A stretch of 32,000 bases of DNA from Ureaplasma parvum serovar 3 str. ATCC 27815. GTDB taxonomy: Bacteria > Bacillota_I > Bacilli_A > Mycoplasmatales > Mycoplasmoidaceae. Shown here in pieces: positions 27,405 to 32,000 of the stretch. Every line of letters starts with the position of its first letter. Position 1 is the stretch's first letter. A program made the translations under genes and the position numbers. Under the pieces are notes generated by a model. The model was not told where the DNA came from. It saw only the letters and a program-made list of their open reading frames with translations, and did not search any database. The DNA lies in assembly GCF_000019345.1 (NCBI RefSeq), contig NC_010503.1, forward strand, positions 510,001-542,000. The letters are read 5' to 3'.

Positions 27405-27537
27405 TAAAAATTAAGTATTTATTATGTTATTTATTTTATGAAATTTAATAATAATTTCAATTATTATGGGTTTTATTTTGTGTAAATTTTTAGTTTTTAT
27501 GTTAAAATTTCTGTGTTATTTTATTAAAACATTATTG

Positions 27538-27553
27538 TTTTTTTTTTTTTTTT
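27538..27553 (+). repeat. Homopolymeric T16 tract in the upstream region of gene 27623-29950
   Basis: I counted 16 consecutive T directly, ending 69 nt upstream of ATG 27623. It is the longest homopolymer in the window. Confidence 0.95.
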
Positions 27554-27622
27554 GAAAAAATAATGAGTAAATAAATGTTTTGTTTTTATCTGTTTATTTT
27601 ATAAAAATGTGGGAAAAATTAT

Positions 27623-29950
27623 ATGAAATCAAATAATAAAAATTACAAATTTTTGAACATAAAAAAACGGAAATATCGCATTTTTTTTATGTTGTGTTCT
27701 TTAAATTTAATATGAGCAGGCGTTATTATAGCTATTGTTCTGCGTTTAAAAAATATTGATAAACGCTTTAGTGAAAATGACCATAAAATTGCTCGTCCAA
27801 CTTGAGAGTATGATAATGATGGAAATTTAGAGATTCACACTCAATTAGCAAATGATTTAAATGATGATTTAAAACAAAAAGCTTTAAATAATGCAAATGT
27901 CAAAGGAATTGTTGTTGACCAAAATGGTGTAGAACATGAGATAGATGTAAGTATTGATGCTAATGGTAAGGTTATTATTCCAACAAAAGATTTAGTAAAT
28001 AATGACCCAACTAAACCTAATATATACACACTTAAAAAAGTCGTTTTAAAACAACATAATCAACCAAATATTGATCTAATTAGTGAAGAGCAATTAAGTG
28101 GTGATAATCATATTTCATTTAAAAAACCAACAGTGGTTGCTCAAATTAATGATAACAATGATTATATAATGCATTTTACGAATCCTAATTTAGTTAACAA
28201 GAAAATTAAATTAACATTTAAAGTTGATGATCAAGATGATCATACAAAAACCATTGAAGCTATCATTGGATTAGATGGAAAGGCTATTTTTAAAACAAGT
28301 GATGATGCAATTTTTGCACCAGATCATAAATATACACTAACAAAAATTGAAGCTAATAACAAAAAAGTTGCTAACATTGATGAAATTCCATTAAAAAATA
28401 GAATCGTTGATAAAAATCCAATTAAAAGAATTAACTTAACACAACTAAAAGTTGCTAAAGATTTAATTCTTTGAAATAATACAAACCAAAACCAATTCAT
28501 AACTGCTACTTTTAAAAATATAAATAACGATTTTGATGATTATATTGTTAAATTAATTTATGAATACAATTATCGTGGAGAAATGAAAGAAATTGCATCA
28601 CAACCTTTCAAATTAGAAAAAAATAAAACAACATACAACAATATCCTTTTGCCAATTAGTATTCCAAATCGCTTATATCATTTTAAAAAAGTAGTAATTC
28701 AAAAATTAAATCAACCAAATAAATCTATTGATTTAGATCATGATCCAAATTTAAAATCTTTTTTTATTGTTGGTCCTGGTAAAACAGATTTTGCATGAAA
28801 AAAACCAAATGATGATCAAATTACATATGATGGTTTAAAGAGATTAAATATTGAAATTACTTCTCAAGATTATGCATTACAAAATGGTAAAAAAGTTATG
28901 GTTTGGTTTAAATCAGATGCCGAACCAAATAATGATTCACTTAAATTTATAGGCGAATTATCTCAAACTAACGCCAATGGAACAGCTGCTGTCATTAATA
29001 ATTTAAATAATTTATACGGTATGAAAGAACAAACAGAGTATTACATCTATAAAATTCAGTTCATAGATGAATTAGAATATTCAAAATTACCACCAAACCG
29101 TAATAACATTGTTTATGAATATAATAAAAATATTGCACGTAATTATGCATTCCGAACTAAAACTGCCCCTTTAATTTTAGAAAAAATAGAAAAAGATGAT
29201 AATGGTAGCATTGGAGGACAAAATTTTTATTTTTACCTAAATAAAGCTAGTGATGATCCTAGTACAATCAAGCAAGTTACTATATATTGTCGTGATAATA
29301 ATAATGAATTATATACTTCTGATGATCAAGAAATAGATTCTGTTGATCTTGTATATCATTCTTGAATTCATGATTTAAAATGAAATCGTGAATATGTTTT
29401 TGATCATGCTGAAATACAAACAACATATCCTGATGATCCTGAATATGGTGGTGAAACAAATGATTTAGAAATTAAAAGAGGATTAACTTTCAAGTTTTAT
29501 ACACCACCAAGTAAAACAGAAATACAGTGAAAACATCCTATAAAAATAACTAATAATGGGGCAATTTTAGATATTCAATTACAATCAAAAGATCGGGCAT
29601 TTGAAGATAAGCAAAAATATCGAGTGACATTAGTTGAAGCTGAAAATCAAAACAATGCTGTTGTTGGTGACTTTTTACTTGCTGGCACTTCTATTAATAA
29701 AAATGATAGCCCAATTGGTGATAATAATGATAAGAACAAAGATATAGCAACTTTGAGCTGTAATTTTGAAAACAAATTAAAAAAAGGGACTAAATACTTA
29801 TTAAAAGAAGTTCGATTTATTGCTAATCCAAATGAAGAAATTAGTGCTAAACCTACTAGAGCTGCTAGACCATTTAATAATGATAATATTATTTATAGTT
29901 TGAATCTACGAATAAATGATCCCTATGACTTTACAACTTTAAAAAATTAG
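27623..29950 (+). CDS. N-terminally membrane-anchored modular surface protein, paralog A, 775 aa
   Basis: ATG at 27623, TAG at 29948-29950. Track ORFs 28133-28474, 28583-28798, 28898-29365 and 29624-29950 are all in frame, with 7 TGA=Trp. The N-terminus has a basic stretch and then a TM segment (LNLIWAGVIIAIVLRL) with no lipobox. The body consists of about 100-120-aa modules, each ending in a [KR]-[LKY]-Y-x-[LF]-x-K-[VI] motif. Confidence 0.8.
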
Positions 29951-29971
29951 TTTAATCCTTAAATTTTTAGT

Positions 29972-29997
29972 TATATATATATATATATATATATATA
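29972..29997 (+). repeat. (TA)13 dinucleotide repeat immediately upstream of paralog B
   Basis: I counted 13 uninterrupted TA units directly (29972-29997). The final A is the A of ATG 29997-29999. The repeat fills 26 of the 46 nt between the two paralogs. Confidence 0.95.
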
Positions 29998-32000
29998 TGA
30001 AAGTAAATAAAATAATTATGAAAAAAAGAGTTAATAAAATATATAAACACAATATGTTTATTTTGCTAGCTACTTTAAATTTAGTGTGAGCAGGCGTTAT
30101 CACAGGAATTGTTTTAAGACTAAAAAGTAAAGATTACTCAAAGCATACTATCTTAAAAAAATATTATTCATTTGATAAAAACGGCAATTTAATTCTTAAA
30201 GGTTATTTAAAACCACATGATAATACTAATTATGTTTTTGGGATTTTTAGCGATGAAAGCAATCAAGAACATAAAATTCAAGCACTTGTTAATGATAAAA
30301 AAGGATTTGAATTTAACACTAAATCATTACCACTAAACCATAGTTACAAACTTAAAAAAGTTACAAGTATTAATGACTATAACCATGTTTTATTAACAAA
30401 TGATGATTTAGTTAGTCAGCAAAAAATTTGTTTTAGTAAGCCAGTTGATGCAAAAGTTAACTTTATTAATAATAAAAAAGTTTATCAAGTTAAACTAAAC
30501 ACGTTATTAAAAAACACTTTAATTCAATTAACACTAAAAGACTTAGAGCATAACGTATATAAAATTACAGCCAAATCAAATGATATGGGAGAAGTTAGTT
30601 TTGATGTTTCACAATTAAAAAATAATAATTTATATGAGGTAATTGCTTTACAAACACAAGACCAAACTAAAATCGTTAATGTTAATGAGATTGAATACAA
30701 CAATAAGATCATAAATAATTTAAATATTGATGAATTAAATACACCATACCAATATAGCAAAAATGGTCATCTTAACTTAATTGCTAAGATACCATTACGC
30801 TATGCTAATGAACAAGTCTATGGTGTTTTTGAAGACCAAAATAACCAAAAACATTTAATTCCTGCCGTAAATAAAAATGATGGAACAATAATGTTTGATA
30901 CTCAAGTTTTAACTAAAAATCCCAATAAAAAATATCATTTACAAAAAGTTGTTTTAGCAAAAAATCAAAATCAAATTTTAATACATAATTTTGATTTAGT
31001 AAGTAATCAAAAACAAGATATCTTCTTAAAAGAATATAAAGTTATTAGTATTAGTGCTCTAGAAAATGATGCTGATAAAACTAAAAGAGAAATCAATTTA
31101 AAACTATCTAACATAAAAAATGACTGAGTTAATAAGCAAATTAAAGTTATTTATTCAAGTTCAGATGGTTCAGATGTTCAAACTCAACCTTTAGTTTTAG
31201 AAAAAAATCAAACAAACTATGTATTAAAACTAAATAATTTAAAAGCAAATCGTTTATATACACTAAAGGCGGTTGAATTAATAAATAACAATGGTAAAAC
31301 TAATTTACCATTAGATACTAACTTAACTAATAGTTTTATGGTTGAAAGAACTAGTGCTGTATTAGCAACAAGTATTAGTGAAATAAGTAATCGTTTGGGA
31401 ACTGCTTTAACGAATGCACAAGTTAAAATCACTTTAAAAGATGTGGATAATGTTTTATTAGCTAATCAAAAAGCGATTATTAACTATGGTAATAATCAAA
31501 AGAGTGAAGCAACTGTTATTGTTAACAATGGTGTTAAGTATCTAATAGCAACCTTAACTAAATTAACATTAAATACGCCTACAATAATTAAATCCATTAC
31601 ATTTGAACAAAAACCAACATGTGCTATTGAAAATATTGGGTTAGATAAAACAAATAACATTATTTATCAAAATACACATGAAGCAGCAATTCCTTTAGTA
31701 ATTAATAATAATTTTGAAATCAATGGGCCATTAGCATCAAGTCATGAAAGTTTAAAAAGTATTAATGCATCTGATGCTAAAAAGGTAAATGCAATTAATT
31801 TAACCCTTGACTTTAATACCAATGAACATATTTATAAAAATTTATTTTTTAAACTAAAATATGTCCCTATTGACGATCAAGGTAATGAAAATATTTATGA
31901 CGCATCAGAAGCAATTTATAGTGATGTTTTAAGTGCAAATAATATAATTGCTAATAAAATCCAATTTAGTTTAGGTAATTTACAAACTAATCGTAAATAT
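29997..32000 (+). CDS. N-terminally membrane-anchored modular surface protein, paralog B (3' end beyond the window, at least 668 aa)
   Basis: The reading frame is open from ATG 29997 (alternative ATG 30018, same frame) to the window end, with only TGA codons interrupting it. The N-terminus MKVNKIIMKKRVNKIYKHNMFILLATLNLVWAGVITGIVLRLKS aligns with paralog A. It shows the same module-end motifs: SYKLKKV, KYHLQKV, NRLYTLKAV, NRKY. Confidence 0.8.

Follow-up and report, generated by a model that had tools for sequence, protein, structure and literature searches.

Simple-sequence repeats lie in or near the genes of several variable surface proteins of Mollicutes. The vlp promoters contain poly-A tracts and the vmm promoter has TA repeats as its spacer (PMC10502178), poly-TA of 10 to 16 units precedes lipoprotein genes of M. 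mycoides (PMC3053259), GAA repeats are found about 40 nucleotides (nt) upstream of the vlhA start sites (PMC6258824), and vaa contains a coding poly-A (PMC3047005). In Ureaplasma, an (AT)9 repeat between UU171 and UU172 was proposed as a repeat switch and later attributed to inversion (PMC3047005), and the type III methylase UU477/UU478 of U. parvum, which is split by a repeat-tract frameshift, is a probable phase-variable gene (PMC2751442). Ureaplasma adhesins are still to be identified (PMC3511179). In a comparison of 19 Ureaplasma genomes, the mba inversion was the only system discussed. To our knowledge, the mba and UU172 loci, both of which switch by DNA inversion, are the only ones of Ureaplasma for which surface variation has been demonstrated. 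When amniotic fluid is infected in preterm birth, ureaplasmas are recovered from it more often than any other bacteria. Here, we describe two tandem genes, A and B, at the end of a 32,000-nt stretch of genomic DNA from Ureaplasma parvum serovar 3 str. ATCC 27815 (NC_010503.1, positions 510,001 to 542,000; this whole stretch is called the window). Each gene is preceded by a long repeat, T16 in the case of gene A and (TA)13 in the case of gene B. The hypermutability of this locus is well supported by comparison of its sequences and may have a regulatory consequence. With moderate probability, A and B form a simple-sequence-repeat contingency locus of U. parvum, the products of which would lie outside the cell and be varied by slippage.

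Results

Length variation of the upstream tracts

The T16 homopolymer is located at positions 27538 to 27553 of the window, 69 nt 5' of the ATG of gene A (27623 to 29950); all window features given here are on the forward strand. (TA)13 (29972 to 29997) fills most of the 46-nt gap between A and B, and its last A is the A of the first ATG of gene B (29997 to 32000, running past the window end). For comparison, we collected 28 more copies of the locus, which belong to U. parvum and U. urealyticum; the sources were NCBI genomes, assemblies of ENA and Logan, and one contig of JGI. A metagenome scan yielded one extra locus copy and three chance hits, and scans of genome contigs with a protein pattern and with a DNA anchor pattern gave no Ureaplasma. 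In the 28 other copies, the flanks of the tracts were conserved, the T tract had a length of 10, 13, 14, 15, 16, 17, 18, 19, or 20 nt, and the TA tract had 5, 7, 8, 9, 10, 11, 12, 13, or 15 units. Four loci that encode the identical protein A P0009 had T tracts of 16, 13, and at least 13 nt (cut by a contig end) and, in the fourth, a deleted T tract, with 11, 8, 5, and 11 TA units, respectively. Likewise, five loci with the identical protein A P0004 had T tracts of 10, 18, 17, 15, and 16 nt and 9, 8, 10, 13, and 11 TA units. Two loci, L019 and L020, encode the same 752-amino-acid (aa) product and differ at all three tracts, that is, the two upstream tracts and the runs in the gene A leader described below. 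The window and L027 are separated by only 4 single-nucleotide polymorphisms in 10.4 kb, yet have TA13 and TA10; with L029, 5 such polymorphisms were found, and TA13 stands against TA7.

To put these numbers into perspective, 18 indel sites were compared in a 14.3-kb alignment of 15 genomes. Length alleles numbered 11 in the T-tract region and 7 in the TA tract; one of the remaining sites, at the far end of the alignment, had four alleles and the others had two or three. Both tracts are clearly the most length-variable sites of the locus. The earlier note, which had proposed phase variation of A and B, had called for such a strain comparison and had named invariant tract lengths as the outcome that would speak against it. 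In fact, lengths ranged from 10 to 20 T and from 5 to 15 TA units and differed between near-identical genomes, and the tracts are therefore not invariant.

Larger changes were also observed. L021 (serovar 1) has a tandem duplication of an approximately 66-nt unit that includes the T tract (T17 plus T16; L021:5830-5990). In the metagenomic copy L003, about 150 nt including the T tract are deleted between two copies of TTTATTTTAT at 27430 and 27593 (L003 approximately 5900 to 6000, equivalent to 27440 to 27592 of the window), and gene A stays intact.

Slippage inside the coding sequences

Gene A starts with a basic leader of 22 codons (MKSNNKNYKFLNIKKRKYRIFF; 27623 to 27688) that contains the runs T5 (27650 to 27654), A7 (27661 to 27667), and T8 (27681 to 27688), which end just before Met23 (27689). 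The leader was frameshifted in 5 of 27 copies, with T9 in L013 and L015 (Illumina metagenome), T7 in L019, A6 in L014, and T4 in L018. In the frameshifted copies, the first ATG gives products of only 12 to 46 aa, and the open reading frame (ORF) of 752/753 aa starting from Met23 is intact. These leader alleles show that the ATG next to the Shine-Dalgarno (SD)-like site can be uncoupled from the rest of the gene A ORF. Two of the three leader substitutions were synonymous and the same basic leader is present in B and other paralogues; the gene A leader therefore looks coding. Together with the length alleles of the upstream tracts, they show that slippage has taken place at all three kinds of repeat, the upstream T tract, (TA)n, and the runs of the gene A leader, each of which differs between genomes that are nearly identical otherwise.

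Slippage was not restricted to the leader. A -1 slip in a coding A7 run of gene A (28798 to 28804) splits the gene in one U. parvum genome, giving products of 404 aa (P0017, ending in FVWKNQMMIKLHMMV) and 384 aa (P0012, starting with MKKPNDD). In U. urealyticum of the serovar 10 lineage (L006, L007, and L008), a 1-nt deletion in TTTAAAACC, at about 30209 to 30212 of the window, cuts gene B short at 112 aa. NCBI annotates no gene at the truncated gene B of these three loci.

Sequence context of the tracts

The statement of the earlier note that the 32 kb contain no long simple repeats other than T16 and (TA)13 was confirmed. T16 is the sole homopolymer of 9 nt or more in the window. According to a first-order Markov model, 0.018 T runs of at least 16 nt and approximately 19 A/T runs of at least 9 nt are expected, of which 1 was seen. 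A/T homopolymers of 7 nt number 41 (A) and 34 (T), those of 8 nt number 6 (A) and 5 (T), and there are none of 9 to 15 nt. We read this stop at 8 nt as evidence of a genome-wide purging of slippage-prone runs. (TA)13 is the sole dinucleotide repeat of five or more units, and 5e-9 occurrences of (TA) with at least 13 units are expected under the same kind of model. Since run lengths elsewhere in the window end at 8, both T16 and (TA)13 are exceptional.

Upstream of gene A, the -10-like box TATAAAAAT (27600 to 27608) was read from the sequence as a putative core promoter, as was the SD-like motif GGGAAA (27611 to 27616), which is the only SD-like site for gene A and serves the first ATG. Both motifs were invariant in the 19 distinct upstream alleles, apart from one G-to-A change in the GGGAAA of L029, and both are kept in the natural deletion allele L003. 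The distance from the T tract to the conserved TATAAA box within TATAAAAAT is 46 nt in the window and 42 nt in most alleles, and no -10-like hexamer is present 1 to 10 nt 3' of the T tract. A hairpin preceding the window T16 was not supported (z = +0.9), and T16 is thus not a terminator tail. Of the several -35/-10 spacings that we considered for the two tracts, none was compatible with the distribution of lengths, and none is asserted here. A motif common to the three T-tract promoters, those of gene A and of the two L022 genes described below, was not found; TTTTGTGTAAA(A)T is on one side of the tract in gene A and on the other side in gene 1 of L022.

The 46-nt gap between A and B does not contain a terminator, and A and B may therefore be one operon. 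A recognizable SD site for gene B was not found either. Around 29950 to 30020, the consensus scan gave no promoter pair; the nearest good -10 box, TAAAAT (30008 to 30013), is 3' of the TA tract, and a pure TA repeat cannot provide both A(-11) and T(-7). In RNA, (UA)n could form a hairpin with a calculated free energy (dG) of -11.6 kcal/mol at n = 13 and of -2.3 kcal/mol at n = 5. An Rfam scan of positions 26900 to 30200 gave no match.

Products of genes A and B

The G+C content of the window is 25%, and TGA is read as Trp, for which gene A uses TGA 7 times and TGG once. All translations were made with table 4, as table 11 breaks genes A and B at TGA. Gene A encodes a DUF1410 protein of 775 aa with the same sequence as AAF30885.1, ACA33127.1, and EDT87857.1 from U. 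parvum serovars 3 and 14, which places the window in the serovar 3/14 type. Gene B has 668 codons in the window and encodes 1,313 aa in full-length relatives; alternative in-frame ATGs are present at 30018 and 30054. Pfam DUF1410 (PF07198) matched A in 2 stretches with 67.2 bits and B in 4 stretches with 125.7 bits, both above the curated gathering threshold of 25.5 bits, and NCBI names the orthologues of A and B "DUF1410 domain-containing protein."

Both proteins have exactly one hydrophobic segment, at aa 20 to 40 (27680 to 27742 in A and 30054 to 30116 in B). Its N-terminal flank has a charge of +8 in A and +7 in B, its C-terminal flank one of +2 in A and +5 in B, and no lipobox was found in either protein. 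According to the positive-inside rule, the basic N-terminal flank predicts a signal anchor with the N terminus inside and the C terminus outside. An iterated profile search across six DUF1410 proteins detected repeats of approximately 80 to 100 aa, 2 in A (27815 to 28084 and 28142 to 28387), 4 in the visible part of B (30177 to 30416, 30471 to 30692, 30759 to 31004, and 31083 to 31325), and at least 7 in full-length B. AlphaFold predicted an all-beta structure for one module of B (30147 to 30452) with a predicted local distance difference test (pLDDT) score of 86.5 when an alignment of 17 repeats was used as the input; the prediction from the single sequence was poor (pLDDT of 44). The best Foldseek matches of this module in the PDB were Ig-like, FN3, and E-set domains with template modeling (TM) scores of about 0.5. 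None of them was significant, and only a generic Ig-like fold is therefore claimed. Over their N-terminal 260 aa, A and B share 31% identity; the C-terminal 484 aa of A match residues 820 to 1296 of B, a region past the window end, with 40% identity (E = 4e-102).

These data agree in part with the earlier description of the two proteins. A and B are indeed paralogues with the same architecture, a basic N terminus followed by one signal anchor and a chain of modules. The modules are the repeats of approximately 80 to 100 aa rather than units of 100 to 120 aa, and the view that A and B are highly diverged outside the anchor does not hold, given the C-terminal match of A to the part of B past the window end. 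That they are surface proteins is in line with prediction: with the charge pattern of a type II signal anchor and Ig-like modules, both products look surface located.

Probable exchange of the locus between species

In parC and yqeH, the window is 99.6 to 99.7% identical to other U. parvum genomes and about 86.5% identical to U. urealyticum. Between the two species, identity is approximately 86% in these genes and 95 to 99.7% in a segment that starts in the 3' end of nadD and includes pfs, an 83-aa ORF, A, and B. This segment of high identity extends over positions 25900 to 32000 of the window, approximately (L002, L011, L016, and L019; the L002 alignment covers about 4300 to 13200). Within species, identity falls to 95 to 98% in mosaic blocks of 500 nt. 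Gene B of the window shares 99.7% identity with a U. urealyticum allele (L016) but only 97.0% with other U. parvum. The pattern suggests that the A/B locus has recombined between the species or that they have alleles of it in common. The near-identity of the locus despite a divergence of approximately 13% in neighboring housekeeping genes indicates that it is actively exchanged, and this exchange suggests selection at the host interface.

Other DUF1410 loci

Two further DUF1410 loci (L022 and L023/L024) were sampled for paralogues; a second protein search gave only the cluster of B itself. L022, from U. urealyticum, contains T17 (L022:1374-1390) 74 nt 5' of the start of a lipoprotein-like DUF1410 gene and T14 (L022:4906-4919) 81 nt 5' of the start of the P0003 gene. 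The T17 follows a strong 14-bp hairpin (dG of -13.6 kcal/mol, z = -4.4) in a divergent intergenic region, and the T14 follows an 8-bp hairpin; a single copy of this cluster was available. All 4 of the long intergenic repeats in approximately 66 kb of Ureaplasma DNA are located just 5' of DUF1410 genes. In this small sample, the position is suggestive of a family pattern.

The basic leader of the P0021 paralogue, which has a good AAGGAAA ribosome site, is broken in both strains, at about 9950 to 10003 of L023 and L024. In L023, the ATG is followed by a frameshift in A6; in L024, A7 is in frame and the ATG is changed to ATA.

Neighborhood of the locus

Directly upstream of the A/B locus is the 83-aa ORF (27082 to 27333), followed by an intrinsic terminator (27355 to 27405) that consists of a hairpin (27355 to 27399) and UUUUUAUUU. 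The strong terminator that the earlier note had placed before the locus is real: RNA folding gave the hairpin a dG of -15.7 kcal/mol (z = -3.7), 0 of 200 shuffled sequences were as stable, and the terminator was kept in all loci compared. In UniRef, the 83-aa ORF is labeled "UreE urease accessory N-terminal domain-containing protein." It shows 99% conservation between the two species, and at least one paralogue of it, AAF30851.1, is encoded at another place in the genome. The last codons of this ORF, GATGAAAGTAAATAAAA (27311 to 27335), share a 16-nt identity with the first codons of gene B, TATGAAAGTAAATAAAA (29988 to 30012); the match may go back to the duplication from which A and B arose, or it may be fortuitous (approximately 0.2 such matches are expected). 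UU locus tags inferred from accession numbers were rejected, as UU476 is a type III restriction enzyme.

The 27 kb upstream of the locus had been described as housekeeping genes. This is true in part; there are also several membrane ORFs and an ORF of 1,132 aa (5953 to 9351) that has a lipoprotein-type signal (…SLATNC) and stands amid housekeeping genes, and the region is therefore not purely housekeeping.

Discussion

Slipped-strand mispairing during replication would alter the T tract, (TA)n, and the A/T runs of the gene A leader. A slip in the leader would switch off protein A or leave a form that starts at Met23, without the basic segment by which the anchor is oriented. Being 5' of the core promoter, the T tract might modulate promoter strength as an upstream element does, and not as a -35/-10 spacer. 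The TA tract might be a part or the border of a gene B promoter that gives rise to a leaderless or short-leader transcript, with the repeat number setting the promoter geometry; alternatively, the tract could be part of an A-B cotranscript and set the stability of a hairpin over the start codon of B. As the net outcome, A and B would be displayed in combinations and amounts that differ from one cell lineage to the next.

Several observations weigh against A and B being a contingency locus of this kind. Against the independent, repeat-controlled promoters proposed in the earlier note, no canonical -35/-10 pair brackets T16 or (TA)13 in the consensus scan, T16 is 46 nt 5' of the best -10-like box, and the TA tract abuts the ATG of B. 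A scan for the sigma-70 consensus gave 14 hits compared with 25.7 in shuffled sequences; such a scan is uninformative in DNA with a G+C content of 25%. With neither an SD site nor a separating terminator, gene B may have no promoter of its own. The length spread of the tracts is broad and unimodal with no preferred "ON" length, and a strict spacer model would place most isolates in the OFF state. The leader alleles with a frameshift appear to be inherited, as T9 is found in both L013 and L015, and switching in the leader need not be frequent. Among the paralogues, P0021 has no long upstream repeat in L023 and L024, and two of the three T tracts, both in L022, could be terminator tails, given the hairpins that precede them. 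Some homopolymer differences may be sequencing errors; the odd lengths in L014 are as in long-read error. As for precedents, the earlier note was not aware of any such system in this protein family or in Ureaplasma. In the literature searched, we found no description of one for DUF1410 or for this locus, and no paper that names DUF1410 together with Ureaplasma (the repeat tables of Rocha and Blanchard 2002 may list the tracts). For the genus, the idea is not new, as repeat switching had been proposed at UU171/UU172 and UU477/478.

If the tracts were neutral microsatellites, that is, slippage hot spots in dispensable intergenic DNA that have no meaningful effect on the expression of A and B, the broad unimodal length distributions and the absence of flanking promoter hexamers would be readily explained, as would L003, in which gene A is intact without the whole T-tract region. 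We consider this rather unlikely, since runs of 9 nt or more are purged elsewhere in the window (1 seen where about 19 are expected), but the long tracts persist at the same positions in all isolates of two species, except for the T-tract deletion in L003. Moreover, all four long intergenic repeats of the sampled DNA are just 5' of DUF1410 genes, and the coding runs of gene A slip as well. An A-B operon in which a (UA)n hairpin over the first AUG of B grades its translation or the stability of the mRNA, instead of an on/off promoter switch, would fit the short gap free of terminator-like sites, the missing SD-like site of B, and the difference in calculated hairpin stability between 13 and 5 units; steps of 2 nt are also unable to shift the reading frame. 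However, a hairpin of AU pairs only has little strength and opens transiently at 37°C, another AUG in the same frame, 21 nt further downstream (30018), lies outside it, and known TA tracts of Mollicutes work in promoters (PMC10502178, PMC3053259), which makes this explanation improbable.

The hairpins before the T17 and T14 of L022 are what would be expected if the T tracts were U-rich terminator tails or insulators that shield DUF1410 genes from read-through, with length variation as a by-product. The window T16 has no such hairpin, the real terminator of the 83-aa ORF is about 140 nt further 5', the T17 hairpin of L022 is in a divergent region with no co-oriented gene to terminate, and 14 to 20 T far exceed the other T runs of the window (8 at most); we therefore regard this function as highly improbable. 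Homopolymers are error-prone in 454 and long-read data. Sequencing or assembly artifacts in low-complexity DNA could in principle account for the length differences, and L014 indeed has several unusual homopolymer lengths and the short-read contigs L004 and L015 break exactly at the T tract. Against this, errors do not typically produce TA differences as large as 16 nt, T10/TA9 (L006, L007, and L008) and the coding T9 (L013 and L015) were each found in more than one independent assembly, and in the same 14 kb, the other homopolymers, with lengths of up to 8 nt, are nearly invariant. The chance that the variation is artifactual is, in our opinion, close to negligible.

A contingency locus at A and B could be part of something larger. 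It is possible, and is put forward only tentatively, that the DUF1410 family is a hitherto unrecognized, multitier contingency system of human ureaplasmas. In it, most genes would have their own poly-T or poly-TA tract on the 5' side as well as A/T runs in the Lys-rich leader, slips in these runs would add or remove the basic segment that gives the signal anchor its orientation and thereby switch surface display in addition to abundance, and the alleles would circulate as mosaics between U. parvum and U. urealyticum. If so, ureaplasmas would have a second, inversion-independent layer of surface variation, and the DUF1410 proteins would be candidate adhesins. If A and B themselves switch by slippage, they are an additional, combinatorial source of surface diversity; targets on A and B would then be unstable in serology, vaccines, and diagnostics, and the tracts could serve as markers for within-host evolution.

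How does the A/B locus compare with the systems already described? MBA/UU376 and UU172/UU171 are variable surface proteins of the same organism (PMC3047005, PMC3511179), and they vary because DNA is inverted at inverted repeats that have a recombinase site of 25 nt (PMC3511179). We rejected an inversion system at A/B: the recombinase site ACTTTYTCTSTTTGATAATTMAAAT had no match in the 32 kb with up to 3 mismatches, and inverted matches flanking A or B were of low complexity only, with no long inverted repeats among them. M. hominis Vaa has a short, N-terminal coding homopolymer in which +/-1 alleles truncate the product (PMC3047005), as do the A7 and T8 runs of the gene A leader. Unlike in Vaa, the ORF from Met23 is intact in gene A, and the outcome may be an isoform that lacks the basic leader rather than simple loss.

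The tandem arrangement of paralogous genes, each with an upstream homopolymer that mutates by indels, resembles M. hyorhinis vlp (PMC10502178). In vlp, however, the tract is within the promoter and one length is ON, whereas T16 is about 46 nt 5' of a -10-like box and varies from 10 to 20 nt; furthermore, vlp encodes lipoproteins, but A and B are not lipoproteins and are unrelated in sequence. Gene B is reminiscent of Vmm of M. mycoides and Vmc of M. capricolum, which have a long TA tract immediately 5' of a surface-protein gene (PMC3053259, PMC10502178, PMC2628566), a strain-variable repeat number of a similar range (10 to 16 there, 5 to 15 here), and several members with their own tract. The Vmm/Vmc tract is a spacer between a defined -35 and -10; around (TA)13, no such boxes were recognized in the consensus scan, and the tract abuts the ATG. 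Vmm and Vmc are also small lipoproteins of another genus, whereas B is a signal-anchored DUF1410 protein of 1,313 aa that has no lipobox and is unrelated in sequence.

The best positional analogue of the gene A T tract is found in M. gallisepticum vlhA, where a variable repeat with conserved flanks is located upstream of the core promoter (PMC6258824). The vlhA repeat is a trinucleotide, exactly 12 units of which are ON, in front of a large family of lipoprotein genes; the T tract is a homopolymer with no evident preferred length. The design of the A/B locus is classical for Mollicutes, but the locus is not a member of the Vlp, Vmm/Vmc, vlhA, or Vaa families.

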